Shown: positions 2,189 to 60,311, counted from the stretch's first letter. The stretch: DNA of 60,311 bases from a virus (IMGVR_UViG_3300014348_000043:1-60311); one strand, 5' to 3'. Numbers and translations are program-made. Notes: a model not told the origin generated them from the letters alone.

Positions 2189-2190
2189 AT

Positions 2191-2550: not shown

Positions 2551-3095
2551 GGCTCACCTTTATATCGTCGAATAAGCGAATGCTTCAGTGTTGCGAGCGT
2601 ATTCATTTGATTCTTGTGTTCGCGCTCAGCTTCCTTAGGGTCTGCGAACGGAAGCTCTTTGAACGCTTTGATGTGAAGCATTTCGATGCCTTCGATTTCA
2701 CGAATGGCGAACTTAATGCCTAATTTAAACGCCTCCTCAGAAAGGTAATGGACTCTGTCTTTATTTGCATCTGCGAGCCGCTCCAGTTCTTTGACGCTGG
2801 TTTCGAGAACAGCTTCGCGGTGCTGTTTCATTTGCTCGTATATTGTTTTAGCCATCTCTTCCCCCTTTCTCGGTGGGATGATTTTGTAATTGAGAAACTT
2901 GGCGATAGCTGGCCTGTAATCATCAAGAGCGTTTGCAAGTAGGCAAAAAATAAAACCCACAGCGAGTATCGGCGCGAACAGCGTGAAGAGAATCAGTTCT
3001 ATAACGGTCACATACTTAACTTGAAGCCACCAAGAAAAAACACAGATCGGCAACGACACCGCCCAAATGATTGCGATGATTTCAAGGTAGGTCAT
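2547..3095 (-). CDS. Membrane protein with C-terminal helical domain (182 aa)
   Basis: The N-terminus has hydrophobic helices (IIAIIWAVSLPICVFSWWL, VIELILFTLFAPILAVGFIFCLLA), followed by a charged helical region. Coupled by ATGA at both ends. Confidence 0.75.
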   Translation of the reverse strand: MTYLEIIAIIWAVSLPICVFSWWLQVKYVTVIELILFTLFAPILAVGFIFCLLANALDDYRPAIAKFLNYKIIPPRKGEEMAKTIYEQMKQHREAVLETSVKELERLADANKDRVHYLSEEAFKLGIKFAIREIEGIEMLHIKAFKELPFADPKEAEREHKNQMNTLATLKHSLIRRYKGEP

Positions 3096-3406
3096 AAAAC
3101 CTCAATCCTCACGCGTGTGCGTTTGCCGACAAGTTTGTTCAATGTGCGTCTGTGTTCTCGATCAGAGGGGAATGGCCAAGCTCCATTCACATCTACAATC
3201 GTTACCCACTTACACTCAAACTCGATCACCTCTGGTTCGATTTCCCAGTCGTTCGCTAAAATATCCGACTCCAAAAAAATTATCTGCCCAGTTTCTCTCG
3301 AAATCGTGCCGAGCGATGAATTTTTATTTGCGAATAAATAGCTGCTTTTATCCCAATGTTTGCGCTTAAACCGCCGCCCACTTTTCACTGCTTCGATGAT
3401 GTTCAT
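3092..3406 (-). CDS. DUF2829-like (Tad2-like fold) small protein, 104 aa
   Basis: The N-terminal 58 aa (MNIIEAVKSGRRFKRKHWDKSSYLF...ESDILANDWEIEPE) match my recollection of the DUF2829 pattern: M.f.eAl.alK.G.k..R..W at the start and eDllA.DWe at the end. I recognised this from memory and did not search. Confidence 0.5.
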   Translation of the reverse strand: MNIIEAVKSGRRFKRKHWDKSSYLFANKNSSLGTISRETGQIIFLESDILANDWEIEPEVIEFECKWVTIVDVNGAWPFPSDREHRRTLNKLVGKRTRVRIEVL

Positions 3407-3619: not shown

Positions 3620-3959
3620 TCATTCCTTTCATAAGTTGAGGCGAGAGCGTGTCCCCAGTGGCTTCTCCTAGATTTACGGCTTTTAATCCATTGCTGGCAC
3701 CGCCGAGTACAGGGTGTTAACCACAGCTTTCCACGCCGCTCGCCTCAATGAAAAGTTATGGACCGCTCTTGGCTCTTGCCCACTCGTAAGTGGAGGTGAG
3801 TCACCCCTAGAGCTGATTTAAGGAAGCGTGCGGGCACACCTATCTCCCTCCAAAACTTTTCATTCAAGCGACCCCTTTCGGGGAGGCGGGGCATTCTTTT
3901 AACCCGACCGTTTACGGGCCCGCCTGCTCGCGCACTATTCCGCACGAGCGCGGATAAAA
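3620..3959 (-). ncRNA. Candidate structured non-coding RNA or structured leader (family not recognised)
   Basis: A 340-nt gap in an otherwise gap-free operon. Helices found by hand on the minus strand: 3949-3942/3933-3926; GGCGGG/CCCGCC at 3924-3919/3890-3885; CCCC-GAAA-GGGG at 3883-3872 (GNRA loop); an 11-bp long-range helix at 3864-3854/3757-3747; CCACU-UACG-AGUGG at about 3793-3780 (UNCG loop); a 13-bp long-range helix at 3746-3732/3651-3638; and CCA-GCAA-UGG at 3697-3688 (GNRA loop). The tetraloops are canonical only on the minus strand. Confidence 0.45.
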
Positions 3960-44559: not shown

Positions 44560-44820
44560 TTAGGAATTTGCGAGGTAAAGATGAAAAACAAACGGACCAT
44601 CGTCGTATGTTGTCAGGTAGGTTCGGCCAGGACCGATGTCGTGTCCAGTCCCGTAGAGACTGAAAGAATACTCTCGCATCACAGCTTCGGGGTCGACCTC
44701 TGCCCACAAAAATAAGTTTTCTTGCTGAAAGGAAACTCTCAAAAATTTCCAAGTCGCGGGGAGGATGATTGAAAAAGAAGAACGGCTTCTTGGGATTGGA
44801 TATTTGTAGACTCTTCTCAT
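44560..44820 (-). CDS. Conserved-looking small protein (86 aa)
   Basis: Its ATG overlaps the terminase stop as ATGA. Contains YKYPIP...LWAEVDP...LYGTGHDI. Confidence 0.65.
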   Translation of the reverse strand: MRRVYKYPIPRSRSSFSIILPATWKFLRVSFQQENLFLWAEVDPEAVMREYSFSLYGTGHDIGPGRTYLTTYDDGPFVFHLYLANS

Positions 44821-47567
44821 AGGCTTCGAATTCCTCTTTCCTCGTAAACAGAAGTTTCTCCCTCATCATTGATCCAGCCAGCAAGGGCCATAAGGATCGC
44901 AATGACAGGGTCAATTTTTAATTTCTCGTGGGACTTTCTCGGGAACACATTTCCGTTATGGTCTTCCTTGGCGACGACATTCCCCATACACCAGCGAAGA
45001 AGTGTCGAGCCATTGTGTTTGATTTTCCCCGAGCGGATCAAAGAGTCGAGCTTTTTCATGGGCTCAGAAAAATTAGAGACGTTCATTGCGACTTTGACCA
45101 TCTCCATTTTGTCGGAAAGTTTCTGCGCGGTCTCTGTCGCACTCCAGGCATCGTACATGCACTCGATAACTCGGTGATCCTTTGCGGCCTGGAGAAGTTC
45201 GCCTTGAATTTGTTCGTAGTTGATCGCCGCGCCTTTTGTCTGAATCAAAGACCCATCAGCCAGACAGTTCTCATAAAAAGGATTTTTCTTTTGCTTGATT
45301 GTGTCTTCGGGCAAGAAGCTTTTATCGAAAATGTAGTAAACATCTTTTTCTTTAAAGACGTAACCGATTGCCGTGATGTCGATGTGTGAGGCAAGATCGA
45401 GCCCGAGGCGGACAGATTTCCCTCGAAAGTCTTCAAGTTTTAATTTCGGGTCAGCGCAGGCGTCCCACATTTTTAAGTCGTAGAACGCATTGGCCTCGCT
45501 GATCCATTGATTCATGTGCTTGATGCGAATGTTTGGAATGTCCGAAGGAGTGACAAGAGCTTTCTCGACTTTCGTGCGAAGAGAGTCGATGTCGACCGAG
45601 ATCCCAAGATTTGGATTTGCCTTGATCCAAACATTCTCGTCCGCCCAGTCGTCCTCATCGTCGAGCGTGTAGACGGCAGAGAAGAAAGAATCGTTACTTA
45701 CTTCGCCCATCGCTACTTTTTTGGCGTACTGGGTCTGGAAAAATCCGACAGAGTTTGTGTCAGAGCCCGCAGTTGTAATACACATCAGCAGGGAGTCTTT
45801 TCGTTTCGACATGCCTGAATAGATGACTTCAAACACCGGGCGGCTCATGGCGTGAAGCTCGTCGCAAATTGCAAGGGCGTCTTTAAGGCCGTCCATGCCT
45901 CCGTGGTCCGCGCTCAAGGCCCGCATAAACGAGTTTGATTTTTTGTGAACGATGGTGTGGGCAAGGACTTCGACCCCAGTTGCTCGAAGGAACGAAGCGT
46001 TCTTTGAGGCCATGGCACGGGCCGAGTCCAAAACAATTCTTGCCTGCTCTCGTTTTGTTGCGACCGCAGAGATGTAGTTTCCGTTTGGATTGTCGAGAGC
46101 CAAAAAGTAGAGGCCCAGAATGGAAGCGATTGAGGAGTTGTGTGTCGGGACCATGTTCTCGCCGATGAGATAGCAGTGATCGGCAGAATCCACCTCAACA
46201 CAAAACATGGGAACTTTTTCTTTCAGCTTTTTGACGCCAACAATGTAGCGGCGGTTTGTGTAAGAGTGTTTCCCTCGTTTTTTTACTTGAAGAGATTTCT
46301 TTCTCTTGAAATTAAAAACAAACTCTTCGCCTCGCGGAGTAAACGCCACTTGCTTGAACAGAGTGTCTGATTTAAAATTATTTTTCTTTGAGACTTTGAA
46401 AGTATCTCTTGTCGGTTTGTACCCCAGCGAGCACAGAAGAATGAAAAGCCCATCAGCAAGTTTGTGGTTTGCATTTGTGAATTCTACTTGTCCGTTTGCT
46501 TTACTGATGTAGCCATCGGAGTCTAAAAGTCCACGTACAAGCTCAAGACGCTGCTGGATGCTGGCCGAAAAGTATTCTTTTGGAATATGTTTATTTTCCA
46601 GCAAGTCCGCTTTGCGAAGAACATCGACGAGGCCCATGACAGGAACAGCGGCTTTATTTCCTTTCGACCACAAGGTGCCAATTTTGTGTTTTCGTTTTTT
46701 CAGAAGCGACACAAGTTGTTTCTGATCTTTTGCGTGGCAATTGAGCCGAGGTCTTTTCCTGTCTCCGTTTCCCAGCCAATAGCCGAGCAAGTAGGGCTCG
46801 ACAGGCAAATTCTTTTTCTCCCCCTGAACGGGCTTGCACAGGTCGATGCTGTGGTTTGTCTCCTTGCCACCATAGGCGCGAAGGGATTTGGCAATTTCTT
46901 TTGTGGATCTCACGCCTTCGTAAATCTCTTTGCGGAGAGTTTTTTGCTGTGCGGCTTGTTTTCCATGACGCGCCTTGCGAACTCGTTCTTTTTTTGACGA
47001 CGTGGGCCATAAATGCTCCGCGCTGCACACCGTCGTCTCGCCGTCCGAGAAAGTTATCTCGTAGGCATCGAGGAATTGGGTCGGAGTCTTCGCCAAAACG
47101 ACACATTGGCCCCCAGTTCGATCAAAAAGTTTCGACCCTACCTCGACCTCCCCCCAAAGCTTCGGTCCGTCTGGGGTCATTACAGGAGTTTTGACGCAGT
47201 GCGCTTTGCCATTCCCTCTGGCGATCTCCAAATGCGCGGTGCGAAAACGCCGAAACCCGGTTTTCTTGTTTTTAAAACCCATGATGCACATGAACGCCCA
47301 GCACTGCCAGGGCTCGAAGACAATGTTCGGGGTGTTCCAGTGTCCTTCGACGTGCTGGAACCTTTGCGCGAGCTTTAGAAACTTTTCTGCCGCATCGGCG
47401 TCGAAATAAAAATTTTCTTCTTTCGCCTTGAGGTCCAGAAAATATCTTTCACATGCGGCGAAGATATATTTATTTGAAACGATTTTGCCGTCGACGATGT
47501 CTTGCGCGTAGGCGTGGCCCCGGACCACGTTCGGGTGTGTCGACTTGTTGAACTTCATCACGACCAC
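44817..47567 (-). CDS. terL: Terminase large subunit, interrupted by an intein (916-aa precursor, about 562 aa after splicing)
   Basis: The N-extein ends in the Walker A-like sequence LEIARGNGKAH. The C-extein has ICDELHAM (Walker B-like), TAGSD and a nuclease half. It is preceded by the small terminase. Confidence 0.9.
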   Translation of the reverse strand: MVVMKFNKSTHPNVVRGHAYAQDIVDGKIVSNKYIFAACERYFLDLKAKEENFYFDADAAEKFLKLAQRFQHVEGHWNTPNIVFEPWQCWAFMCIMGFKNKKTGFRRFRTAHLEIARGNGKAHCVKTPVMTPDGPKLWGEVEVGSKLFDRTGGQCVVLAKTPTQFLDAYEITFSDGETTVCSAEHLWPTSSKKERVRKARHGKQAAQQKTLRKEIYEGVRSTKEIAKSLRAYGGKETNHSIDLCKPVQGEKKNLPVEPYLLGYWLGNGDRKRPRLNCHAKDQKQLVSLLKKRKHKIGTLWSKGNKAAVPVMGLVDVLRKADLLENKHIPKEYFSASIQQRLELVRGLLDSDGYISKANGQVEFTNANHKLADGLFILLCSLGYKPTRDTFKVSKKNNFKSDTLFKQVAFTPRGEEFVFNFKRKKSLQVKKRGKHSYTNRRYIVGVKKLKEKVPMFCVEVDSADHCYLIGENMVPTHNSSIASILGLYFLALDNPNGNYISAVATKREQARIVLDSARAMASKNASFLRATGVEVLAHTIVHKKSNSFMRALSADHGGMDGLKDALAICDELHAMSRPVFEVIYSGMSKRKDSLLMCITTAGSDTNSVGFFQTQYAKKVAMGEVSNDSFFSAVYTLDDEDDWADENVWIKANPNLGISVDIDSLRTKVEKALVTPSDIPNIRIKHMNQWISEANAFYDLKMWDACADPKLKLEDFRGKSVRLGLDLASHIDITAIGYVFKEKDVYYIFDKSFLPEDTIKQKKNPFYENCLADGSLIQTKGAAINYEQIQGELLQAAKDHRVIECMYDAWSATETAQKLSDKMEMVKVAMNVSNFSEPMKKLDSLIRSGKIKHNGSTLLRWCMGNVVAKEDHNGNVFPRKSHEKLKIDPVIAILMALAGWINDEGETSVYEERGIRSL
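46137..47198 (-). mobile_element. Intein (354 aa) with LAGLIDADG homing endonuclease domain, in the terminase P-loop region
   Basis: It starts at Cys124 (CVKTPVMTPDG...). It has two LAGLIDADG blocks (LLGYWLGNGD and LVRGLLDSDGYIS). It ends ...VPTHN with Ser as the +1 residue (SSIASILGLYF). Codon positions were checked against the DNA: TGC at 47198..47196 and AAC at 46139..46137. Confidence 0.85.
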
Positions 47568-48145
47568 TCATCAACGTCGGAAGTCCCAGCCGGACCTGTT
47601 TTGTCTTTCTTCGGAAAGAGGTCCAAGTTTTTTGTGAGGTGCTGGATCTGGGCGCGAACTTTATCTCGCTGCGTGACTTCCGGGAAAAGTCTTCGGTGCT
47701 CGCCCGCGACAGTGACAACCTTGAACGACATTCCGTTCATGCGGATAAATTTATTCAGCTCCTCGAGTTCGACGTAGAGGTCACAAAGAATTTCGAGCGT
47801 GTGGAGATGTCCGGGCTTGAAGTTATCTCGCTCGGTGACATTGTCGATGAAGCTCATCCAGGTTTTTCGGAACGTGGGCTCTTTTCTCGGGGGAGGGTAG
47901 CGGTGATTTGTAAACTCATCTTCGGGGTCAGGAAGAATTTCTTCTTTGTCGGGAACTGGGGCCGGGTAGACGTGCTTGCCAGACTTGCCGTCTCGCAAAT
48001 GTCTGCTGTCGTTTTCGTTGGACCGAATCACAGTCCCGTCCGCAAGAGTGATCTTGCGGGTCGACTTTCGGCCTTTAGAGATCTTCGGCTTCTTTTCGGA
48101 TGCGGTCTCTTCCACGGGAGACTCCGCGATTTTCTTTTTCTTCAT
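47558..48145 (-). CDS. terS: Terminase small subunit (P27-family-like)
   Basis: The C-terminal half (HLHTLEILCDLYVELEELNKFIRMNGMSF...LFPEVTQRDKVRAQIQHLTKNLDLFP) resembles P27-type TerS. It lies directly upstream of terL. Confidence 0.65.
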   Translation of the reverse strand: MKKKKIAESPVEETASEKKPKISKGRKSTRKITLADGTVIRSNENDSRHLRDGKSGKHVYPAPVPDKEEILPDPEDEFTNHRYPPPRKEPTFRKTWMSFIDNVTERDNFKPGHLHTLEILCDLYVELEELNKFIRMNGMSFKVVTVAGEHRRLFPEVTQRDKVRAQIQHLTKNLDLFPKKDKTGPAGTSDVDEWS

Positions 48146-49916
48146 GGTGCTTTCCCCGTTGTTCTTTTAGCTTTCGCCATTGGAACATTGACACACCGAC
48201 CGGGCGCTTTTCAAGCTTTGTCTTTTCGGGTCGGGGTTTGGGGGCCGGGCTGTCGTCGGCTTCTTTCTGGATTTCTTCGATTTCTTTTTCGCCGCCCAGC
48301 ATTTCGATGAGGGGATTGCTTCCCTGTTCGTACATACCGCCAATTGGGTAGATCCAGAAATCGTAGGTCGCCGATTTTAAAACATCCTCGGTCTTAAAAA
48401 TTTTCTTTCCTGACAAGTCGCAGTAATTATCAAAAAAGGCTTTTACGGTGAGCGGGTCTCGGTAGTCCTTGGACTCGAGCGTCTTGCGGCGGCGAAGACC
48501 TTCCTCGACCTTCGACCACAAGAAAGCTTTTTGTTTTGCATCCCAGCCAGGCGAAGGACCAAGACGGCTCTTGGTCGTAAGCTCGGCGACGACACTCTTC
48601 TGCCAGCGACTCATCGAGGCGTGGGCAAGCTCCCAGAACTTCGGGCCCTGGTATTCCAGGTTGAGCCACTTCCAATTTTTCTTGGGATATCTTTGCGGGC
48701 AGTATTTTTTGCCGACAGTCAGAATCCATTTTGCGATTTGGGCAACATAGGCGGGGTCGAACTCGGCGTGTTTCTCGTCCAGCTTTTCAGACATGCGGGC
48801 AATTTCACCCGGAGTCATTTTCTTGGAGTCCTTGAGCGAGCGGCTTCCAAGAACAAGCGGAGCAAACTTTCGAGAGTTAAACAAAATGTAGTTGTCTCGC
48901 GGGTAGTTGTTCGAAATCACCATGCTGCAATAGATCTGACTGCTGTTCGTCGCATCGACACCTTTGCGCTCGATTGAGATCGAGTCGTTCTGGTATTCCT
49001 TCATGCGAGGTTCCATTTCATGATTGTAGGAAAGCTCATCGAACCACACGAGAGTTTTATTTTCGACTTGGCTGTTGAACTTACTTTGATTCGCGCCAAG
49101 AGTTTCTTTCTTACCATCAGCGGAATTCGAAACACCGTGAAGGGCCTGAAGCAAAAGCTTTAGCCTGTTCTTCCCGACACCAGGCACACCCTGGAGCACG
49201 AGGTACACATAGGCTCTTGATGTGATCGAAGTGTAAACCCACGCGTAAAAATAATTTCTCTCTTCCCGGATTGGGATCAGGTGTTTGAGAAGTTTGATGA
49301 CTTCGGCTGGCGGGCTGGCCGGAAGGGCGTCCCACTTTTCGGGGTTGTTCTTTTTCCAGTACCACCACGACGGCTGGATGTACTCGTTGAAAAAGGAGTA
49401 CTGGTGGACTTTGTCTTGCCCGAGACCAACATGAACACCCGGTGGCTTCCTGGGCATGTACTTTGGGACCACAGCCCTTGCAAGGCTGTGATACTCTGCG
49501 CTCGAAAGATTTGAGGTTTTAATAAAATGGGCCCCAGATACTTCCACAACTCGTCGCTCATCTCCCTGCGAGGAGCAGAAATAGTTTTCGATGTTGCTTG
49601 TCGGCTTTGTCATGTCCACGTTGAGAATCAAGTGGGACAGCTCCGGCGGCAGACTGGCAAACTTTGGCGCAGAATTTACCTGAAGTGAGCTGAAATACTC
49701 TTGAAACAATTCCCCCACTGCGTCCTGCCCACTTCCCAGAAGCGACACGGCGTCAGCATGTTTGGAAAGATTCGGCCCCAGACGCCGAACAAGTTCGGAC
49801 ACAAAGGCGGGGAGAGTGATCGGGGAGCCATCAAGTGTTATGCACCGAGCTTTGTCCGGGCTGTACTTTCTAACTTGCATCCCAGCGGCATCCAAAGCCG
49901 CTTTCAGTTTTGACAT
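48075..49916 (-). CDS. SF3 (P4/D5-like) replicative helicase with an uncharacterised N-terminal domain
   Basis: Walker A (VLQGVPGVGKN), Walker B (LVWFDELS) and motif C-like sequence (MVISNNYP). It lies next to the iteron region. Confidence 0.65.
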   Translation of the reverse strand: MSKLKAALDAAGMQVRKYSPDKARCITLDGSPITLPAFVSELVRRLGPNLSKHADAVSLLGSGQDAVGELFQEYFSSLQVNSAPKFASLPPELSHLILNVDMTKPTSNIENYFCSSQGDERRVVEVSGAHFIKTSNLSSAEYHSLARAVVPKYMPRKPPGVHVGLGQDKVHQYSFFNEYIQPSWWYWKKNNPEKWDALPASPPAEVIKLLKHLIPIREERNYFYAWVYTSITSRAYVYLVLQGVPGVGKNRLKLLLQALHGVSNSADGKKETLGANQSKFNSQVENKTLVWFDELSYNHEMEPRMKEYQNDSISIERKGVDATNSSQIYCSMVISNNYPRDNYILFNSRKFAPLVLGSRSLKDSKKMTPGEIARMSEKLDEKHAEFDPAYVAQIAKWILTVGKKYCPQRYPKKNWKWLNLEYQGPKFWELAHASMSRWQKSVVAELTTKSRLGPSPGWDAKQKAFLWSKVEEGLRRRKTLESKDYRDPLTVKAFFDNYCDLSGKKIFKTEDVLKSATYDFWIYPIGGMYEQGSNPLIEMLGGEKEIEEIQKEADDSPAPKPRPEKTKLEKRPVGVSMFQWRKLKEQRGKHHEEKENRGVSRGRDRIRKEAEDL

Positions 49917-49987: not shown

Positions 49988-50059
49988 ACCCGGCCCAAAT
50001 CGTAAAAAATTCTTATGTTTTGCTTTCAACACCTTTTCTAAAAATTGGGCCGGGTGTTG
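49984..50059. repeat. 15-bp perfect inverted repeat (CAACACCCGGCCCAA / TTGGGCCGGGTGTTG) around a 46-bp AT-rich spacer
   Basis: The arms are at 49984-49998 and 50045-50059. The left arm abuts the promoter-like motif. Confidence 0.8.
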
Positions 50060-50078
50060 CTTTTCAAAACCGCCGAAA

Positions 50079-50405
50079 ACACCACTAAACAAAATCTTGT
50101 AGAAATCCCTATTCTATTATTCGATTAGCAAATTCTCGAAACGCCACCCCTATGTCAGCGCGAAGAAAAATATACTAATAGGGATATAATGGTACGGGAA
50201 AACACGATTTTCGATAATAAGTTGTTTGTTTAGTGGTTTAAGTTGTTGAAATTGCTGGCCAAGTACCTTGTCGTAAACTGAGAGTTGTTTGTTTTAGTGG
50301 TGTCGATTTCTTAGTTAAGTGCTGGAAATCACAACAGATTTGGCTATAAACAAAAAGGTTTTAGTCGTTGTTTTATTTGCTGGTAAGACTCTTGACAAGA
50401 GTCTT
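50079..50405. promoter_or_regulatory. Iteron-like repeat cluster, AT-rich segment and palindromes (candidate replication origin / early control region)
   Basis: Direct repeats GTTGTTTGTTT(T)AGTGGT...TGCTGG lie at 50221-50258 and 50284-50325, with a shorter third copy at 50357-50383 and an inverted copy at 50079-50095. There is an inverted repeat ATCCCTATT/AATAGGGAT (50105-50113 / 50178-50186) and a 9-bp-arm palindrome AAGACTCTT-GAC-AAGAGTCTT (50385-50405). Confidence 0.45.
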
Positions 50406-50657
50406 CCATATTTTCAGAAATTTGTCAACCAAAAATCGTCTGAAAAAAAGGAGATAAAACCTAAGGAGAATTGACCTTAATCCTAAAAATGTCAATTTCC
50501 TGAAAAACCTGAAAATGCGTTTAATTCGATTTGGGCTTTTGCAAAAATGAGACTTTTTTTCAAATTTTGACGTTTAAAAACAGGGAAGTCGCGTTTTTCC
50601 GAGATTTTACTTAAGTTTTGATTTTCAAAAAACTCCGTCAAACCTCATTAAACCGCT

Positions 50658-50963
50658 TTAAAGGTTTTTGTCGTGGGTCTCATCTTTTGGCGGTTTTTGC
50701 CGAAATTGCTCAAAATATTCGTAAATGTTGGGCGCAAAAGGGCGCACAGAAAGTCGCTGACAGGCCTCAAAAAATTGCGGGTCGATCTTACATTTTAGCC
50801 TCAATTTTGCTCGCCGAAATGCTTTGAGTTTTGTCTCGTCCGAGGCCTGCACAATCATCCCAGAATCCAAAATAATTTCACAAGTGAAGTAGAATTTTTT
50901 GGAGCTTTCAGCGAGGCGCACACTTCCGTTTTTGAGCTTGAATATCCTGTCAGGAGTTCTCAT
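50658..50963 (-). CDS. Paralog family member 5 (101 aa)
   Basis: ATG 50963 overlaps the upstream stop as ATGA. Sequence: MRTPDRIFKLKNGSVRLAESSKKFYFTCEIILDSG...TKLKAFRRAKLRLKCK. Confidence 0.75.
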   Translation of the reverse strand: MRTPDRIFKLKNGSVRLAESSKKFYFTCEIILDSGMIVQASDETKLKAFRRAKLRLKCKIDPQFFEACQRLSVRPFAPNIYEYFEQFRQKPPKDETHDKNL

Positions 50964-51268
50964 CTCGTCATCTTCTTGTAGAGTTCGTGGGGATCTTGGA
51001 GGCCGGGCTCGCCAGTCATTTTTCTGTAGGCCCTGGCGAAAGCGGGGTCTTGCTTCATCTTGATTTTTATGCGGACTCTTCGAAAGGCCTGAAGCTTTGT
51101 CTCTCCCCACTCAGTGTAGAGTTCCCCGTCGATGTATGCTTTGCATTTGATGTATATCTCCTGCCTGGTGAGGAGGAAAAAAGACTCCTCTCTCCAGAAA
51201 TGGATGTAGTCGCCATTCTTTAAATAAAAGCTTCTATGTGGGGCTGTCCTCGGCTGTCTCTTTTTCAC
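50960..51268 (-). CDS. Paralog family member 4 (102 aa)
   Basis: GTG 51268 overlaps the upstream stop as GTGA. Sequence: ...RSFYLKNGDYIHFWREESFFLL...TKLQAFRRVRIKIKMK. Confidence 0.75.
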   Translation of the reverse strand: MKKRQPRTAPHRSFYLKNGDYIHFWREESFFLLTRQEIYIKCKAYIDGELYTEWGETKLQAFRRVRIKIKMKQDPAFARAYRKMTGEPGLQDPHELYKKMTR

Positions 51269-51543
51269 CAGTCTATTCCTCTCTGAGATCTTGCTAGCCT
51301 TCTTGCCACAAACTCTGCTTTAAGCTTTTGTTTGTCTCTATACTTTAGCTTTGCAATTTTAAATGCCTCGAGACCGCTGAAATCAGACACACAGTAAGTT
51401 CTGTCCCCATTGATACTGATTACGCACCTATAGTGAGGAATAGTCCTGGGAGTAAAAGGGATCTCCACAGAGCCGCCGCAGGATAGCTGGAAGAACCTGC
51501 TTCGCCTTCTTCGTTTCCATTTTGGAATTTTATTTGATTTCAT
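51265..51543 (-). CDS. Paralog family member 3 (92 aa)
   Basis: ATG 51543. Sequence: ...SRFFQLSCGGSVEIPF...YRCVISINGD...GLEAFKIAKLKYR. Confidence 0.7.
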   Translation of the reverse strand: MKSNKIPKWKRRRRSRFFQLSCGGSVEIPFTPRTIPHYRCVISINGDRTYCVSDFSGLEAFKIAKLKYRDKQKLKAEFVARRLARSQRGIDW

Positions 51544-51850
51544 CAATCATCCAATCAAGCTCGATTTTTAGCAGCGCTTTTAGACGTGTTGTTTTTAGGT
51601 ATCTCCAATATCGGTAGGCTTTTCTCGCATCTTTAATAGCCACTTTAAGGCTAGAGCCTGTGTGGCCTCCCCGCTCATATCCGTCCGTAAAAATAACGCG
51701 ATAGTAGTATTGTTCAGTAGCCTCCAGCCAGATAAACAAAGCATACCCATCGTGATTTAGTCTGATATACCGATCATCTTTTTCTTTAAACTTATCATTG
51801 GAGATTTTATCTTTCCCCTTTGAGGGGCGCTTTCTTTTATTTTCTGTCAT
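51530..51850 (-). CDS. Paralog family member 2 (106 aa)
   Basis: ATGA overlap at 51847-51850. Sequence: ...DRYIRLNHDGYALFIWLEATEQYYYRVIFTDG...LKVAIKDARKAYRYWRYLK. Confidence 0.75.
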   Translation of the reverse strand: MTENKRKRPSKGKDKISNDKFKEKDDRYIRLNHDGYALFIWLEATEQYYYRVIFTDGYERGGHTGSSLKVAIKDARKAYRYWRYLKTTRLKALLKIELDWMIDEIK

Positions 51851-52095
51851 TGCGACTGCCCTTCTGATCTAGTTTTTATTCTGGCGGCCAGGCGCATTGC
51901 TTTTAGTTCTTTCCAGTGGCGGTAAACCCTGACTGCGTCTTTGAGGGCCGCCCGGGCGCTGTGGCCTGAAATTCCATTCCACATTGTTCCGCCCAGAACA
52001 AAAGCGCAGAAGTAGTCCTGATGCCGCTCGCGCCAAGTGATTTGAACGAAGCCATCGTCCGCCAATTTAAAATGCCGATCTCTTCTGGGTTTCAT
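51847..52095 (-). CDS. Paralog family member 1 (82 aa)
   Basis: Sequence: MKPRRDRHFKLADDGFVQITWRERHQDYFCAFVLGG...ARAALKDAVRVYRHWKELK. There is no SD, but an extended -10 lies 7 nt upstream of the ATG. Confidence 0.75.
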   Translation of the reverse strand: MKPRRDRHFKLADDGFVQITWRERHQDYFCAFVLGGTMWNGISGHSARAALKDAVRVYRHWKELKAMRLAARIKTRSEGQSQ

Positions 52096-52102
52096 GTGGA
52101 AG

Positions 52103-52111
52103 ATTCTAGCA
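52103..52111 (-). promoter_or_regulatory. Extended -10 element TGCTAGAAT, 7 nt upstream of ATG 52095 (possible leaderless transcript)
   Basis: The minus strand reads ...aagTGcTAGAATcttccacATG. No Shine-Dalgarno sequence lies between, and no good -35 is present. Confidence 0.35.
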
Positions 52112-52170
52112 CTTGCCGAAAGTTTACGGAACTTGCAGAAAACTAATTGTAAATTTGAAATCCTATTTAA

Positions 52171-52538
52171 TTGAGAATGAGTCTCATTTGCAATAAGAAA
52201 GCTTTTAAATCGAATAAACCCAGGACAATCTAGTTGAGAATAGGTCTCATGTAGAGTTGATTGCGACTCGATGCGCGACTCGAAACGAAGTTGTTTACCA
52301 CCTCCCCCTGGGTCGAGGCTATAAACAATATAGCCTTTATGGCTTCACAAGCAATGTGCTTGAGGTGATACACTATGTGTTGTCTATTAGCTCGAAGGGC
52401 CTATATTGCAGAATATAGTTGGCCATAATTGTCACTGTCTCAAGGTTAAACAGAACACTGTTATTCTCATTTTGAGACGGTGTAGAACTTCTAGGCAGGA
52501 TTGTAGAATCTCAATTTGAGACGTTTTATTTTGAGGCG
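52171..52538. promoter_or_regulatory. Left operator cluster (TGAGA/TCTCA palindromes)
   Basis: TTGAGAATGAGTCTCAT at 52171-52187; TTGAGAATAGGTCTCAT at 52234-52250; TTCTCATTTTGAGACG at 52464-52479; ATCTCAATTTGAGACG at 52508-52523; a partial TTTTGAGGCG ending at 52538; ATTGTCACTG at 52428-52437. Further hairpins: GGCTATA-aacaa-TATAGCC (52318-52336) and CTATATT-gcag-AATATAG. Confidence 0.55.
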
Positions 52539-52542
52539 TCGT

Positions 52543-52587
52543 GGTCGGGTGCCATGGTCGGGTGCCATGGTCGGGTGCCATGGTCGG
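52543..52587. repeat. Tandem repeat, 3.5 copies of the 13-mer GGTCGGGTGCCAT
   Basis: Exact copies at 52543-52555, 52556-52568 and 52569-52581, then a partial GGTCGG at 52582-52587. It lies immediately downstream (minus sense) of the terminator. Confidence 0.9.
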
Positions 52588-52623
52588 AAAAGAAAAACGC
52601 CTAGCTTTTCAGGCTAGGCGTTT
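52586..52623 (-). terminator. Rho-independent terminator
   Basis: The minus strand reads AAACGCCUAGC-CUGAAAA-GCUAGGCGUUU followed by UUCUUUUCC. It begins about 22 nt after the stop of ORF 52645..52818. Confidence 0.8.
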
Positions 52624-52644
52624 CATGGAATTATTTTTTCAGGT

Positions 52645-52818
52645 CTATTTTTGTTTCATCAGGTCTTCTAGGAAATCACGGACTAATTTTGAAAGATTGA
52701 GTCTGTTTTTCTCCAGAAAATCTTGATGTCTTTGGTACAGCAAGACGGACCTAGTTAGCTTGTCTTCGTCTTGCTTTGTTTCGCCCTTTCGGTACTTTTC
52801 AAGGTCTTGTTTTTTCAC
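52645..52818 (-). CDS. Ribbon-helix-helix-like small protein (57 aa, below the ORF-track cutoff)
   Basis: Starts at GTG 52818. The sequence VKKQDLEKYRKGETKQDEDKLTRSVLLYQRHQDFLEKNRLNLSKLVRDFLEDLMKQK fits a strand-helix-helix pattern (RSVLLYQ / HQDFLEK / LSKLVRDFLEDL). The SD is weak. Confidence 0.45.
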   Translation of the reverse strand: MKKQDLEKYRKGETKQDEDKLTRSVLLYQRHQDFLEKNRLNLSKLVRDFLEDLMKQK

Positions 52819-52833
52819 TCGGGACCGCCTAGT

Positions 52834-53013
52834 TCATCGTGAATATAGATGTCCCCGAACCCATCTCTGAAGCAAGACTTTATTTTTGTTTTTAAAATAT
52901 ACCACGTCGTCAACATTTAAATTCACTTGGACCGCCTCGACTAGTTGCCCGAGCGTGAGTCGGGGCGCGAGGTCCTCGACTCTTAAAATTTTAGGGGATT
53001 GTGCGTTTTTCAT
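52834..53013 (-). CDS. Small protein (59 aa, below the ORF-track cutoff), possibly DNA-binding
   Basis: ATG 53013 has GAGGTG upstream. Translation: MKNAQSPKILRVEDLAPRLTLGQLVEAVQVNLNVDDVVYFKNKNKVLLQRWVRGHLYSR. Confidence 0.55.
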   Translation of the reverse strand: MKNAQSPKILRVEDLAPRLTLGQLVEAVQVNLNVDDVVYFKNKNKVLLQRWVRGHLYSR

Positions 53014-53040
53014 TTTTCACCTCTGCTTTGTTTTGAAAAA

Positions 53041-54501
53041 TTAATCAATGTCGCCTTGAATTGTGAAGTTAGAAACTGTCGTGTTGGGGACTACAGTCCA
53101 AAGTCTTAACTCAAACGACTCCGCGATATAAAAATGAGATTTAGGGGTCAATTCTTTCTCAATGATTTTTGGGTTTTTAGCATCGTATCTATTTTCTTCT
53201 TCAAAAATCTTCCCGCCTAAACAAAGGGGCGCGTGCTCCCGTCCGGTATGCTCGACAACCCCACAAGCAAGGCCATTGAGGGATGCATCTTCGTGGTTTC
53301 GAACGATATACAAGGTATTAGGGCGTCCTTTGCCATGGGCTATTTGAGACCGGACCGCGCACAATTTTTCTTTAGTCTCGTCAGATTCCCATGTATGGAC
53401 TTGGTCCTTGTCTAGTTTCAAAGTCTTGCCGGAATCAATGAAAAACCACTCACCTTGCCTTAGGACCTCAACTCCGTTTTTCATCGCCGTCTTGACTGAT
53501 TCGGGAATCATTGACTCATACGCTTCTGCGATTGATTTTGCGTCCTTTGAGACCTCGCAGAAAAACGGGTTCCAGATACCGTGCTCGACCTCACGTCGAT
53601 CTAGGTCCATTAAAAACTTGCGCCCTGAATTCTCAAGAAGCATGGCCCCGGTGAAATGCATTTCTTGGCCCCCAATGGTGAAATCTTCCTCGGGTCCTTG
53701 TTCAACCACTTTCGTCTCAGCTAGTTTGAGTCCAGCCGATGCTAAAACATTCAAAGGCACTGAAAGACTGGAAGCTTCTCGAACTAGCTTTTGAACGATT
53801 GACTGGCCGCCTAGGACTTTCGACTCAAAATCAGAGCAGTTCAGCCTTTGTGAATTCAATACAATTTTGCCCTCAGAGGTCTTGAACGCGACTAGTGTCT
53901 CACCTAAATATATCTCAGAGCTACTGATTCGGTACTGATCGACTTTGGCCGTCTTGCCTTTGCCTGCTAGGAATACCTCGACCGCGCTCTTATATGAGTT
54001 GAAAGTCTCTTCAGGATTGAAACCTTTCCCTTTGTTCAAAGGCTTAGTTTCATCATCATAATGATTTTTGCATTTTTCGAACTTGAGTCCAGACCCTTCG
54101 AGGTCTGATAGCCTAGGATTAAGTCCTAGTTTTTTTGCTTCAGCCTTCAGTTTCAAAATCTTGTTTGTCTTTTCTTGCATGGCCGCGAGATTCGCAAGGT
54201 CTGAGATATCCTCGGCGTTCGTCTCAAAAATAGTCGCGCCGATGACTCTTAGAATTAAACTAACACAATCATAAATATAATGCCCGGATCGATCCCCTGA
54301 AGATCCCGATCCCCAGCCGCCAGTTGAATAATATGGGCGCTTCCGGATGACCCAGCCTTGTTTCGTCTCAGAATAGAACCCGTGGATATTCTCAAGGTCT
54401 TGTTCGTCGTGAATGATTCCTAGATCATAGGCCAGCGCGAGGTGGAACCCGCCTGAACGCGCTTTTAAAACATTCTGAATAGTGTTGTATTTAATTCCCA
54501 T
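53041..54501 (-). CDS. Orphan protein (486 aa), function unknown
   Basis: ATG 54501 has a strong AAGGGAG 7 nt upstream; the ORF-track start is 54543. The C-terminal part (LRQGEWFFIDSG...IAHGKGRPN...GVVEHTGREHAPLCLG...LWTVVPNTTVSNF) loosely resembles the RQGDV...GH.H...HEEH small-barrel family seen in phages. Confidence 0.7.
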   Translation of the reverse strand: MGIKYNTIQNVLKARSGGFHLALAYDLGIIHDEQDLENIHGFYSETKQGWVIRKRPYYSTGGWGSGSSGDRSGHYIYDCVSLILRVIGATIFETNAEDISDLANLAAMQEKTNKILKLKAEAKKLGLNPRLSDLEGSGLKFEKCKNHYDDETKPLNKGKGFNPEETFNSYKSAVEVFLAGKGKTAKVDQYRISSSEIYLGETLVAFKTSEGKIVLNSQRLNCSDFESKVLGGQSIVQKLVREASSLSVPLNVLASAGLKLAETKVVEQGPEEDFTIGGQEMHFTGAMLLENSGRKFLMDLDRREVEHGIWNPFFCEVSKDAKSIAEAYESMIPESVKTAMKNGVEVLRQGEWFFIDSGKTLKLDKDQVHTWESDETKEKLCAVRSQIAHGKGRPNTLYIVRNHEDASLNGLACGVVEHTGREHAPLCLGGKIFEEENRYDAKNPKIIEKELTPKSHFYIAESFELRLWTVVPNTTVSNFTIQGDID

Positions 54502-54681
54502 TTTGATCTCCCTTGTTTGTTTTTGAAAAACACTTGTCCTCAAGAGACCTTAGTTCAAATGTTATGCCATGCTATTTTAATAGCATTTTAAAACAGTCCT
54601 AAGCACTAGATGCCATCACCTCAAACCTATAGGATCTAAACATGCGCCCATCTATTAATAGGCGCGGCGAGAAGAGCTGCG

Positions 54682-54769
54682 TTCTCATTTTGAGGCGTAG
54701 AACTTGCATACAAAGTGACGTGGATTGTCACTGAGACATGTCTCAATCAAAGACTGCGCCAGTGACAAT
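54682..54769. promoter_or_regulatory. Right operator cluster (same motif family as 52171-52538)
   Basis: TTCTCATTTTGAGGCG-TAGAACTT at 54682-54705, matching TTCTCATTTTGAGACGGTGTAGAACTT at 52464-52490. A 14-bp perfect palindrome TGAGACATGTCTCA at 54732-54745 is nested in a 10-bp inverted repeat ATTGTCACTG/CAGTGACAAT (54724-54733 / 54760-54769). Confidence 0.55.
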
Positions 54770-54808
54770 TTTGGCAAATCGACCACGTTATTTTATGGCC
54801 AGTCCCGT

Positions 54809-54838
54809 TTTACGCAGCAGCCATCTCAAATATATAAT
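54809..54838 (+). promoter_or_regulatory. Sigma70-like promoter for the plus-strand ORF 54944..55318
   Basis: TTTACG (54809-54814), an 18-nt spacer, then TATAAT (54833-54838). Confidence 0.45.
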
Positions 54839-54943
54839 CGAAATAATGGGAGATGAATTTTGGTTGCCACGCGCCTCTCTATAAAACATAAGTTACAGAA
54901 AAATTTTTGAGAAAAAATTCTCGCGTGAGAGGGGAATTCCGCA

Positions 54944-55318
54944 GTGAAATCATTTTCAAGAGAAACAGAAAAGCGAAAAGAATTTGTCTGGTCGAGAGTT
55001 GAGATTCTAAAAAAGCGCCACAAGATCCTCTCAGACCTTTCTCACAGTCTCGGGGAAACTTTGAAAGAGTCTTCGGAGCAAGCCCAGAGAATTGCCAAAA
55101 CCCCCAAAGAAAAAGTTTTTAAAGATCTTGAAATAAAATTGGCACTAAGATTTGAAAAATACTTCAGAGAAAACTATGTCGTCGTCAGCCATTTTTTGAC
55201 GGAAGTTCGAATGCAGCTCGAAGAAGCTCAGATAGAACTCCAAGAGATTATGCGCAAAGAGCGGCAAGAAGTCTCCAAGCTTCCTCTTGCCAAACGGCCA
55301 GAGAAAACTGCCCCCTAA
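54944..55318 (+). CDS. Coiled-coil protein (124 aa)
   Basis: GTG start with GAGGGGA 9 nt upstream. Charged helical sequence. Transcribed divergently from the 486-aa gene. Confidence 0.6.
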   Translation: MKSFSRETEKRKEFVWSRVEILKKRHKILSDLSHSLGETLKESSEQAQRIAKTPKEKVFKDLEIKLALRFEKYFRENYVVVSHFLTEVRMQLEEAQIELQEIMRKERQEVSKLPLAKRPEKTAP

Positions 55319-55349: not shown

Positions 55350-55448
55350 CTAGGCATTGCGACAGATTTCTAGGAACTCAAACCAGTCAATCAGTCCGAG
55401 CTTTAAGGCCCGGACTGCGTTTAGGATTTTAAGATCTGACTCGCTCAT
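55350..55448 (-). CDS. Possible micro-ORF (32 aa)
   Basis: Its ATG overlaps the vWA gene stop as ATGA. Translation: MSESDLKILNAVRALKLGLIDWFEFLEICRNA. Confidence 0.3.
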   Translation of the reverse strand: MSESDLKILNAVRALKLGLIDWFEFLEICRNA

Positions 55449-56608
55449 TTCTCTTCTCCGAACTCCAGCACTTCCCCGAACGGAACTTTTGTGTAGCCAG
55501 GCAGGAGCCCATCCGGCACGGCCCAGAGGACCGGAACCCCGGGCGTATTCCCGAAGCTGTCGCAAACGAGATCCGTCAGCATGACAACGGCAATCGGCGG
55601 CTCTTGCGCCTCGGAGATATGCTGAAACACCGGAGCGAAATCTGTTCCGCCTCCGCCGCGAGGGTTTAGAACTACGTCATCGTCTTCGCCGAAGACTTGA
55701 ACGTCCAGAACCTCACTGTCGAAATAAACAACTTCAATTTCCTTCGGCAAAAGATCTTGTTTGATGCCGTTAATTTCGGCTGCGAAAACATTTAGCATGT
55801 GCCTGTCAACGCTTCCCGAGCAGTCAACACCGATGGCTACTTTCCCCATTTTCTGCCCAGATAAAGACGGCAAAATTAAATCACTGTGCAGGAATCTTCT
55901 TTTCGGTCTTGCGTAGGAGTAATCTGTTTTTGCTTTCTCAGATAAAAAGTTTTTAAGAACTTCTTTCCAGTCAACTTGCGGAGCTAGGACTTCATCCAAA
56001 AGTCGTTCGAGGTTTGAAGAGAGCTTCCCTTGCATCTTGGCTGCGTTCTTTGCGGCGATGACTCTAACTTTTATCTGTGCAGATTTTTCGGCCATCTTGG
56101 CTTCATCTGTTTGTCCTTCGCCGTTGTCGGAGCCAGCGTCGTGAACATCATCCATGGCACCGCCAGGAGTTCCCGCCCCGTTTTTCTCAGCGCCTTCAGG
56201 TAAAAGCTTGTAGACACCTTCTGCGGTCCCGCCGCCCTCTTTTACAAGATGGGGATTTAAAAGTCCCCCGACTGGCATCGAGCCGATTTTCTCTTTCACG
56301 AGCAAGTCGTTAATGACATAGTCAGCGGCCTGGTTCCATTTGTTGTGGTTTCTTCCCGCCCGGCGGCCCATGTGGTCGAACATACAGTGAAGGGCCTCAT
56401 GTGCCAGAACAAAAGTCGTCTCAGCCAGAGTGAGCCTCTCAGTCCACCCTGGATTAATTTTAATTGTCTCGCCGTCTGTTGCCATTGTGGGAACATCTTC
56501 AGCATAGCGAAGCGGCATTGGCAGCAAGATAGAGGCAAAGAACGGGTGGTCTAAAATCAGCCCAGCCCGTGCTTTTGTTACTTTGTCGAACTTAACAGGA
56601 ATGCTCAT
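55445..56608 (-). CDS. vWA domain protein with N-terminal HExxH metallopeptidase-like domain (DUF2201-like)
   Basis: Contains FVLAHEALHCMFDH (HExxH) and a MIDAS-like motif (IGVDCSGSV). Confidence 0.7.
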   Translation of the reverse strand: MSIPVKFDKVTKARAGLILDHPFFASILLPMPLRYAEDVPTMATDGETIKINPGWTERLTLAETTFVLAHEALHCMFDHMGRRAGRNHNKWNQAADYVINDLLVKEKIGSMPVGGLLNPHLVKEGGGTAEGVYKLLPEGAEKNGAGTPGGAMDDVHDAGSDNGEGQTDEAKMAEKSAQIKVRVIAAKNAAKMQGKLSSNLERLLDEVLAPQVDWKEVLKNFLSEKAKTDYSYARPKRRFLHSDLILPSLSGQKMGKVAIGVDCSGSVDRHMLNVFAAEINGIKQDLLPKEIEVVYFDSEVLDVQVFGEDDDVVLNPRGGGGTDFAPVFQHISEAQEPPIAVVMLTDLVCDSFGNTPGVPVLWAVPDGLLPGYTKVPFGEVLEFGEEK

Positions 56609-57479: not shown

Positions 57480-58484
57480 TTAGTTGAAAAGTGCAGCGCC
57501 TTCTTTGGACGCCCAGTCGATGAATGCTTTTGTTGTTGCGATGTCAGGGCATTTTGCCATGGCGTCTTTGATGTAAAGAGCCGAGAACTCCGGCGGCATT
57601 CTTTTGATGTAGGTCAGAGCCCGGTCAAAAGTTCCTGATGTGGTTCGCGCCACAAGAGCCCCGCAAAGGGCGTAAAGAGTTGCCGGGTCACTCGGGACTT
57701 CTTCTTTCTTGGGGTTCAGCATGATGCGGTCGGGATTTGGCATAGATTTAAACACCTTCAGAAAGGCCATGAACTCGCTGGCAGGGCCTTCGCCTACGTC
57801 CCCTGTGAAGGTCTCAAACTCGGCTTCTGTGACGCCAAGGGAAGCAGAAACGCCCTCAACCCACGCCCGGGGAGTTGCATTGACATCCTGCCGTGCGTTG
57901 TAATTGCTGAGAAGCTCGGGACGAAATCGGATGAAAGCGATGACTTCGGTTTTAACGCCGTTATTGATGGCCCACTGCGTCCAGTCGTCAAGGCTGGCCT
58001 CAAGAGCCACGCGGGTCATTCGGTTTGCCAGATGGCCTAAAATACGGTTTGCGCCAGCTCTGTCGGCCTGGGTGTTTCCTGTGGCGACAATGCTCCAGCC
58101 GGACTTTAGGCGCTTTCCGTGGATTTCACGCTCTTGAATGAGGTTCGCCAGGACTTTTTGGGCCGAGTTATCGGCCTGGGAAAGCTCATCAATAAGAAAG
58201 ATCCCGCTTTCGGGGGTGTTTTTACAGCCCTCGAGCGGGAACTTGTCCTGAGACACGACAAAGATTAGCTCGTCGCGGTTTTTGCCAGTTAAAGTTGGCA
58301 GACCATAGTCTTCTGGCTGAAGCAGAGGAGCATGGATGGCCTTAAAGCCAATGCCAAGCTCCTGGGCCGCCTGGGCAGCGATTTGGGTCTTGCCAAGACC
58401 TGGCGAGGATTCGACCATCAAGGTGCGCTTGATGCCTGCTGTGTGCCGGGACTTGATCTCTTGTTTTAGTTTCGAGGGATTCAT
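57480..58484 (-). CDS. MoxR/CobS-like AAA+ ATPase
   Basis: Walker A (ESSPGLGKTQIA), Walker B (IFLIDELSQA) and the sensor region (IVATGN). 334 aa. Confidence 0.8.
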   Translation of the reverse strand: MNPSKLKQEIKSRHTAGIKRTLMVESSPGLGKTQIAAQAAQELGIGFKAIHAPLLQPEDYGLPTLTGKNRDELIFVVSQDKFPLEGCKNTPESGIFLIDELSQADNSAQKVLANLIQEREIHGKRLKSGWSIVATGNTQADRAGANRILGHLANRMTRVALEASLDDWTQWAINNGVKTEVIAFIRFRPELLSNYNARQDVNATPRAWVEGVSASLGVTEAEFETFTGDVGEGPASEFMAFLKVFKSMPNPDRIMLNPKKEEVPSDPATLYALCGALVARTTSGTFDRALTYIKRMPPEFSALYIKDAMAKCPDIATTKAFIDWASKEGAALFN

Positions 58485-60069: not shown

Positions 60070-60271
60070 ATCTGGCCTCAATTTCTCGTTTTAGTTTTGC
60101 ATTTTCTTCTTCAAGCTTTTTTATCTTTTGCGACAAAATAACATAGGCGGCGATGAATCCAATTTCTGCCCCATCCTCGGGAGTTTCTGGGACAATGTCA
60201 AACACCCTTCCTTTTTGGCAGAGGGCCTCTCGCACCATTCTTTTCAGTGTTTCTAGGGTTTCTTTATCCAT
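60062..60271 (-). CDS. Small coiled-coil protein (69 aa), spans the terminal repeat
   Basis: ATG 60271 has GAGGAG upstream. The C-terminus is a heptad-like stretch (KIKKLEEENAKLKREIEA). Its first 58 codons are duplicated at 1..174. Confidence 0.7.
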   Translation of the reverse strand: MDKETLETLKRMVREALCQKGRVFDIVPETPEDGAEIGFIAAYVILSQKIKKLEEENAKLKREIEARYD

Positions 60272-60311
60272 GTCTCCTCAATTTCCATCCGTTGTATGTT
60301 TTATAGAAAAC
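60098..60311. repeat. Direct terminal repeat, right copy
   Basis: Identical to 1-214. Confidence 0.95.

Follow-up and report, generated by a model that had tools for sequence, protein, structure and literature searches.

The DNA analysed here, called the window, is the whole 60,311-nt stretch IMGVR_UViG_3300014348_000043:1-60311 from a virus, and the subject is a small cassette lying between its positions 52,096 and 54,943. Read along the minus strand, the cassette consists of a regulatory spacer shared with a divergent gene, a gene for a protein of 486 amino acids (aa), a variable slot holding a 59-aa open reading frame (ORF), a gene for a 57-aa protein resembling ribbon-helix-helix (RHH) regulators, an intrinsic terminator, and a tandem-repeat array (Table 1). 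The three ORFs, the terminator, the sequences shared by both flanks, and the TGAGA/TCTCA repeats all lie where an earlier note, made from the sequence alone, had placed them. Absent from that note were the ATGYTAT heptads near the 486-aa gene, a conserved non-coding block of about 75 nt, the variability of the middle slot, and the tandem array in which contigs of related phages end.

The cassette had been described as an insulated three-gene module, and this holds in part. It is a discrete unit closed by its own terminator, and a terminator also follows the gene of the 57-aa protein in the related loci L002, L004, L068, L071, and L083. On the upstream side, however, no clear terminator was found between the VWA gene and the cassette, and any insulation there depends on the opposite-strand ORF 54944-55318 alone. 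Relatives have a divergent gene of 82-114 aa in the equivalent place, and these genes are not homologous to one another. Nor can the 59-aa ORF be called a conserved partner. It has no homologue anywhere searched and no match in Pfam, NCBIfam, or PADLOC, while the slot between the large gene and the regulator gene is filled in relatives by unrelated genes of 100-167 aa, none of them homologous to it. The 59-aa ORF, unique to the phage of the window, is best seen as the occupant of a variable accessory slot. In L068, the region downstream of the cassette (2100-2600, minus strand) contains an opposite-strand lipoprotein-like ORF with a HEIGH zinc-protease motif, and TGTCTCA-type sites are situated beyond it.

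Short inverted sites are concentrated in both spacers of the cassette, when counts are compared with those in dinucleotide-preserving shuffles. TGAGA-N3-5-TCTCA occurs only three times in 60.3 kb, at 52172, 52235 (N5), and 54732, where 0.31 is expected, and none of 100 shuffles reached three; the site at 54732-54745 is the palindrome TGAGACATGTCTCA, which falls within the conserved upstream block. The reverse arrangement, TCTCA-N3-TGAGR, is found in the genome only at 52465, 52509, and 54683. Thus, six sites are clean, and the seventh of the "at least seven" claimed is an imperfect TGAGA-N6-TCTCG at 54908-54923. The two spacers, 991 nt in all, contain 15 TGAGA/TCTCA half-sites where 2.6 are expected, and no other 500-nt bins of the genome are as dense; if GWGAC is taken as a unified half-site, the enrichment falls to 12 against 4.1. 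Extended motifs of the TGAGA type are local to the cassette flanks. The flanks also share the composite TTCTCATTTTGAG(A/G)CG..TAGAACTT (52464-52490 and 54682-54705) and the element ATTGTCACTG, present at 52428 and 54724 with an inverted copy at 54760. Next to the array of paralogous genes, the proposed promoter TTGCAA-N17-TTAAAT is indeed present with a 17-mer in its spacer, but it agrees with the consensus at 8 of 12 positions, is missing the A expected as second base of the -10 hexamer, and does not pass the criteria of the promoter scan.

The same words were recovered from relatives. In a de novo k-mer search of the spacers of loci that carry a gene of the 57-aa family, TGAGA/TCTCA ranked first (57 against 18.5 expected), as did GTCTCA/TGAGAC among 6-mers (28 against 5.6), the loci compared being not phylogenetically independent. 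Spacers of loci lacking this gene are enriched in unrelated GC-rich words and not in TGAGA. In the kilobase upstream, L002 and L004 have 14-15 TGAGA half-sites where 3-5 would be expected, and L068 has TGAGA-type sites downstream. Identical TCTCAAATTGAGA and TCTCAAAATGAGA are present in L004 and L002, in front of homologues with a protein identity of only 41-45%. The TGAGA(C)/GTCTCA sites are conserved in this way between phages, and the shuffles together with this conservation rule out chance as their source. It is highly improbable that the inverted repeats act as RNA hairpins in leader transcripts (in antitermination, processing, or stability) and not as protein-binding DNA. The sites could form 5-bp hairpins on either strand, and folding of the leader regions is a little more stable than that of shuffled sequence (z -2.07 and -2.24), but these z-scores are marginal, the stems have merely 5 bp, unpaired half-sites are enriched too, the 5-mer occurs both head-to-head and tail-to-tail with spacers of 3-6 nt, and no Rfam family (nor any tRNA) was found within the window.

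The 57-aa protein is a member of a small family with the consensus (TSVNI..Q..FL....LNLS.LVRD.L..LM.), for which a hidden Markov model (HMM) was made from nine sequences: the window ORF, seven sequences translated from six related loci, and P0122. The HMM matches an ORF 0-2 genes downstream of the large gene in the window, L001, L002/L003, L004, L068, L071, L077, L083, and the distant L012 (E 1e-8 to 1e-26), and a copy with 63% identity was found in L076 by tblastn. Altogether, eleven related loci, including L076, carry the gene; in L012 the large protein is only 26% identical, but the two are still paired. According to the family HMM, there is a single such gene in the window. L002 has, besides the copy after its large gene, a second gene of the family (58 aa, 3200-3376) within the upstream operon.

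In the alignment of 11 members, a T-S-V-N-I strand with alternating residues is followed by helix A (Q..FL), an L-N-L-S turn (N-x-S), and helix B (LVRD.L..LM), which agrees with the RHH pattern, a core of about 40-45 residues with a strand of alternating polar and hydrophobic residues, helix A, a short G/N-x-S/T turn, and helix B. S43 is invariant, and N41, V46, and R47 are nearly so; the N-terminal tail is conserved too, with L6 nearly invariant, and the protein of the window stops 8 residues past helix B. Two clades differ in the strand, namely RSVL(L/I) in the window, L076, and L083, and TSVN(I/L) in L002, L004, L068, and L071. The 57-aa query itself has no match in Pfam, and CcdA (PF07362) matches three of the 11 members with a best E of 0.0057, below the curated thresholds. 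A CopG-family chain from PDB, 9kkd_A, aligned in register but weakly (E 0.38), and hhalign against a CcdA sequence gave a probability of 12% (P 0.0024) over 26 in-register columns; against CopG it gave nothing. These matches weakly suggest a putative member of the RHH superfamily. The proposal of an RHH-like candidate regulator with operators is reasonable, and the evidence for the fold itself is weak.

The 486-aa protein had been regarded as an orphan, and this is not the case. Among 5.8 billion proteins searched, there are 63 near-full-length homologues with 36-59% identity and many shorter relatives, all unannotated, and a profile search of 1.84 billion representatives places its core in a superfamily of at least 926 representatives (50%-identity clusters) at E<=1e-3, of which 191 are at E<=1e-30. 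Almost all clusters come from uncultured phages, and most members are 300-400 aa long and match residues ~165-486. IMG/VR contains 63 loci with a family member, some on jumbo-phage contigs, and a scan of metagenome contigs gave 8 loci. PHROG 29643 and 7247, both of "unknown function", are the sole library families matched; phrog_29643 was hit by the window query at E 0.007 and by relatives down to 8e-16, and the core of the protein is, by these profile matches, distantly homologous to both families. The subfamily of the window differs from them in being nearly absent from cultured phages and in having ~165 additional residues at the N-terminus, which form a small beta domain, a GGWG loop, and a long helix. 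Nothing was found for the gene by blastn and tblastn in 50,697 cultured-phage records, and the only cultured relative is a 26%-identical hypothetical protein of Bachita-type Gordonia phages. In Gordonia phage Bachita (gp184) it lies among unannotated early-region genes, 2.7 kb from the physical genome end.

Motifs visible in the family alignment are GGWG, RHFTGAxLLENxGRKFLMDxDRxE, RQGEWFF, HGKGRPN, and HxGREH, and the C-terminus of aligned homologues is invariably ..GDVD. Sequences from the IMG/VR loci share RQGEWFF, H..(E)H, and the C-terminal ..G.VD. No Pfam, NCBIfam, or PADLOC model matched, and a PDB profile search returned only TetR noise (E 0.48). The AlphaFold2 model from 35 sequences is confident (predicted local distance difference test, pLDDT, 86.8), yet Foldseek found no fold match for it in PDB (best E 0.11) and a single, unnamed match in BFVD, which is again Bachita gp184 (A0A410TCG2, E 7.6e-9). 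A full-text literature search for the PHROG number of the family, the RQGEWFF motif, or DUF2201 with DUF3150 and phage gave nothing. Several catalytic assignments were rejected, all from alignments only: an archaeo-eukaryotic primase motif I (FLMDIDRxE), as the DxD is not kept in distant members; a Walker A motif (GKGKT, ~residues 182-186), which has the wrong spacing and is likewise not kept; and HKD/PLD (HGKGRPN) or 2H phosphoesterase (HFTG) motifs, whose key residues are lost in distant members.

Full-length members mostly head an early operon, behind a spacer of 400-1400 nt with a divergent small gene. Distant members have DnaB-type helicases, ATP-dependent ligases, family-A polymerases (PolA), SNF2/DEAD helicases, and SbcC-like ATPases as neighbours, and in L078 and L080 the family gene has Toprim_3+DUF5906 genes at a distance of 1-3 kb. 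From these neighbourhoods we infer a probable role of the 486-aa protein in DNA replication, recombination, or other DNA metabolism, or in early host takeover. CarD-like proteins binding RNA polymerase (CarD_TRCF_RID) are encoded near the family gene in L081 (3525-3953) and L084 (396-887). Hydrophobic leader ORFs of 18-45 aa (e.g., MKLLIGALMFLVQLILSL) are present between the promoter region and the large gene in L001 (5741-5878), L002 (5908-5964), and L004 (5883-5969), and no counterpart was seen in the window.

The spacer upstream of the 486-aa gene contains two further conserved elements. The first is the block of about 75 nt, which has the composition GTGAC-N9-GTCAC, then TTTG-N5-AAGTTCKACG, then (C)TCAAAWTGAGA on the minus strand. 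It is found at 3750-3850 in L076, 5470-5560 in L001, 5230-5300 in L004, and ~2380-2470 in L083, its elements recur in L004, L002, L007, and L083, and the phages sharing this non-coding block have protein identities of 41-59%. As a sigma-70, extracytoplasmic function (ECF), or Bacteroidetes-type promoter, a LexA box, or a DnaA box, the series GTCAC..AAGTTCKACG..CAAAA does not fit across the loci. The second element is the set of three ATGYTAT heptads, which are three of just nine in the genome. At the equivalent place L076 has 3 copies (~3895-3930) and L083 has 5 copies (~2525-2575), with the same spacing but in other orientations, and in all three phages a conserved ATGGYATAACAT, a possible extended -10 element, is overlapped by the heptads. 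The shuffled orientations at a constant distance of 10-11 bp suggest a protein-bound array rather than inherited sequence, and the heptads may be the real autoregulatory operator.

Taken together, the region is interpreted, with moderate confidence, as an early operon under negative feedback by the product of its last gene, with a cargo linked to DNA metabolism. The operon would be transcribed early, and the small protein, encoded last, would build up until its dimers bind the repeated short sites and shut off their own promoter. Two neighbouring promoters, that of the paralog array to the left and that of the divergent ORF to the right, would be co-regulated by the same protein or a partner of it, and the outcome would be negative feedback with a timed shut-off of the cargo. 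Two classes of operator candidates are available, the heptads one helical turn apart by the gene and, on either side of the cassette, the inverted repeats of the TGAGA(C)/GTCTCA type, and the evidence between them is split: the TSVN(I/L) clade shares TGAGAC sites, the RSVL(L/I) clade shares heptads, and the window carries both site classes with one gene of the 57-aa family. The choice is ambiguous. The heptads have the position and helical phasing expected of an autorepressor array, and the TGAGA sites are those that occur in the left and right flanks alike. The small protein would either read one class, with another factor for the other, or have a specificity broader than a single word.

Several results weigh against this interpretation. 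The RHH-like proteins of L076 and L083 are the closest to that of the window, yet TGAGA is not over-represented in the spacers of these loci, which have only one or two TGAGA-like sites apiece, and the TSVN(I/L) clade has TGAGAC sites but different repeats near its promoters. In the window, the TGAGA-type sites of the right spacer are 120-170 nt upstream of the best promoter candidate of the 486-aa gene and overlap no scored core promoter. The promoter positions are candidates, and the number of promoter-like sites in the scan did not exceed that in shuffled sequence (6 against 4.7). Of the loci that encode a full-length homologue of the 486-aa protein, roughly half have no RHH gene. All sequence matches of the 57-aa family to RHH families are below usual significance thresholds, and the AlphaFold2 monomer is all-helical, with helices at 3-11, 15-37, and 42-56 and no strand (pLDDT 80.9; predicted template modelling score 0.42), being a model from a two-sequence alignment that cannot form the intermolecular sheet of an RHH dimer; a Foldseek search of PDB with it gave 0 matches.

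Among the closest known systems is immI of phage P22, in which the RHH repressors Arc and Mnt control the antirepressor Ant. There too, a compact phage cassette has divergent promoters, and an RHH-type repressor of ~50-80 aa is co-transcribed with a far larger cargo and acts on its own and the opposing promoter via short symmetric operators. The cassette of the window differs in that the small protein is encoded last and not first, no second RHH protein was found in the genome, the sites form multi-copy arrays in two spacers instead of a single 21-bp operator, and no Ant, KilAC, or Bro domain is present in the cargo; no antirepressor family of Pfam or PHROG matches the 486-aa or the 59-aa protein. 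Likewise, no lysogeny genes were found in the phage, and a Pfam search of 49 further ORFs (E<=1e-4) revealed no integrase, recombinase, or repressor domain, which agrees with the earlier note. The genetic switch proposed there has no support in the sense of a lysis/lysogeny decision, and an autoregulated early cassette fits better.

The RHH proteins omega of pSM19035 and ParR of R1 (on parC) act on arrays of 7-11-bp repeats. Similar to these systems, short repeats in mixed direct and inverted orientation (heptads and TGAGA half-sites) are arrayed in the window at several promoters, and the small RHH-like protein closes the operon next to a repeat array. In the window, however, there is no ParA or ParM-like partner, the heptads are one helical turn apart and not contiguous, and the context is a lytic-type phage in which binding is predicted only. 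Control by a small repressor-like protein and short repeats in arrays is an ordinary design among phages and plasmids, of which the cassette would be another example and not a new principle.

The best sequence resemblance of the 57-aa family is to the N-terminal domain of the CcdA antitoxin, in a strand-helix-turn-helix register that includes the (L/V)N(L/I)S.LV turn. The large and the small protein could be a functional pair, either a toxin-antitoxin or a partition-like motor/adaptor, in which the small protein neutralises or recruits the 486-aa protein and represses the operon, with the repeats as a centromere-like or operator platform. This is rather improbable. The gene pair is kept in distant relatives including L012, the small protein has a conserved N-terminal tail, and the layout of iterons overlapping a promoter, a large protein, an RHH protein, and repeats resembles that of parC-parM-parR and omega-regulated operons. 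But no CcdB-like partner is in the cassette, PADLOC recognised no defence or toxin-antitoxin model, and the small protein is without the C-terminal toxin-binding tail that would neutralise a toxin. The large protein has no match to an actin, ParA, or tubulin fold and no conserved P-loop, and neither a recognisable toxin nor a Walker-type or actin-like NTPase of a type Ib or II partition locus was found beside the adaptor. A variable gene separates the two partners. Most of the ~900 superfamily clusters are proteins of 300-400 aa, and those whose context was examined belong to replication modules, an RHH partner being present in a single case.

Directly beyond the terminator, the window has a perfect 13-nt repeat in tandem. 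Arrays with a different unit each are at the equivalent position in L002 (8210-8253), L004 (8270-8303), L071 (1990-2093), and L083 (4870-4914), and all of these arrays after the terminator of the RHH gene are short and GC-rich with a unit of 8-17 nt. The contigs of the four relatives end inside them, and the window assembly reads through its own. The arrays likely cause the assembly breaks, which explains the poor assembly of the relatives, and they may represent a genome end, iterons, or a site similar to a centromere. In another reading, which we consider unlikely, the flanking repeats, or at any rate those on the left, would not be transcriptional operators of the small protein but DNA of a replication origin or genome end (iterons, AT-rich DNA, inverted repeats) bound by the DUF5906 protein, the 486-aa protein, or the terminase. 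Besides the array and the contig ends, which fit long iterons or physical ends, the position of Bachita gp184 near a genome end, the replication and repair genes around distant family members, and the DUF5906 genes of L078 and L080 are in its favour. DUF5906 is the helicase domain of P4/D5-type primase-helicases, and in the window such a helicase is 2.7 kb and TerS/TerL are 4.5 kb downstream of the cassette. On the other hand, TGAGA-type sites are also in the right spacer between divergent genes, the assembly passes straight through the array, and the low-GC spacer at 50000-50650 next to the helicase gene is at least an equally good origin candidate, or a candidate packaging site. Where a full-length homologue occurs without an RHH gene, no TGAGA enrichment is seen, which argues against the 486-aa protein as the binder. 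The replication control suggested earlier as an alternative thus finds points in its favour, and the autoregulated early cassette is still preferred.

A broader reading, which is tentative and somewhat doubtful, joins these elements to the autoregulated cassette. Conservation of H282, E351, H418, the invariant C-terminal Asp, and RQGEWFF raises the possibility of a metal-dependent enzyme. The 486-aa protein and its 300-400-aa relatives would then be a family with a new fold, possibly such an enzyme, acting early on DNA or a host target, harmful when over-expressed, and kept under tight feedback by a dedicated CcdA-like partner, with the tandem array as the functional platform (origin, centromere, or genome end) of the same unit. 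The main gain of the analysis lies in this cargo, which belongs to a sizeable recurrent phage family with a confident structure prediction unlike any solved structure and no annotation in the libraries searched, and whose members either head early operons near genome ends or are part of replication/repair modules. Uncharacterised and structurally unmatched families are common in phage genomes; this one is a well-defined functional target, with its own regulator and operator-like sites as a handle, and the repeat arrays that end contigs may mark origins or genome termini.

Table 1. Features of the cassette, of its two flanks, and of the neighbouring genes, with positions in the window.
Feature	Position	Strand	Remark
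486-aa protein	53041..54501	-	ATG start agrees with homologue alignment; GGGAGA 7 nt upstream
59-aa ORF	52834..53013	-	good Shine-Dalgarno sequence, GAGGTG upstream
57-aa CcdA/CopG-like (RHH-like) putative DNA-binding regulator	52645..52818	-	GTG start
Intrinsic terminator closing the cassette	52624..52594	-	12-bp stem, then T-run
Perfect 13-nt tandem repeat	52542..52587		3.5 copies, directly after terminator
Candidate extended -10, TGgCATAAC	54569..54561	-	~60 nt upstream of 486-aa start; overlapped by heptads
Three ATGYTAT heptads	54559..54586	+, +, -	54559+, 54569+, 54580-; starts 10 and 11 bp apart
Conserved upstream block (~75 nt)	54682..54769		aligns with L076 and L001 upstream spacers
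AAGTTCTACG then CCTCAAAATGAGAA	54705..54682	-	in upstream block
Inverted repeat AAAGTGAC-N7-GTCACT	54712-54732		in upstream block
ATTGTCACTG	54724-54733		in upstream block
CAGTGACAAT	54760-54769		in upstream block
Sigma-70-like promoter candidate of divergent ORF, TTTACG-N18-TATAAT	54809..54838	+	best candidate, 10/12 positions
Divergent 124-aa ORF, helical, K/E-rich	54944..55318	+	GTG start
Left-flank site cluster	52428..52538		elements in next four rows
ATTGTCACTG+TCTCA	52428-52442		
TCTCATTTTGAGACG..TAGAACTT	52465-52490		
TCTCAATTTGAGACG	52509-52523		
TTTTATTTTGAGGCG	52524-52538		degenerate
Sigma-70-like candidate GAGACA-N18-TATATT	52441..52412	-	overlaps ATTGTCACTG+TCTCA element
Two 17-mers TTGAGAATRRGTCTCAT	52171-52187 and 52234-52250		63 bp apart; region 52165..52250
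Weak promoter candidate TTGCAA-N17-TTAAAT	52193..52165	-	first 17-mer in spacer; faces paralog array from 52095
MoxR-like AAA ATPase	58484..57480	-	
DUF3150-like protein	between MoxR-like gene and VWA gene	-	
DUF2201 VWA/metallopeptidase-like protein	56608..55445	-	
Array of small paralogous genes	52095..50658	-	
Low-GC spacer	50000-50650		37.6% GC in 1-kb window, genome minimum; between paralog array and DUF5906 gene
613-aa DUF5906 helicase-type protein	49916..48075	-	Pfam DUF5906, E 4.7e-10
Small terminase subunit (Terminase_4)	47558-48145	-	613-aa DUF5906 gene directly upstream
Large terminase ORF	44817-47567	-	916 aa, unusually long

The ends of the window (1-214 and 60098-60311) are identical over 214 nt, and the phage genome is accordingly complete, with ~60,097 bp, and either circular or terminally redundant; this overlap is situated in ordinary sequence away from the cassette. 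The source is a siphovirus-like and apparently non-temperate phage. Nearly all genes are coded on the minus strand, in the order MoxR/DUF3150/VWA, cassette, paralog array, DUF5906 helicase, TerS, and TerL, followed by a protease, major capsid, portal, and tail genes with the tape measure, and then by DNA polymerase, exonuclease, helicase, an endolysin-like protein, and ATP-dependent DNA ligase. Residues 110-365 of the large terminase also match further PHROGs of terminase large subunits, and there are weak matches to PHROGs with the annotations DnaC-like loader and primase; this ORF may represent a fusion or an insertion.

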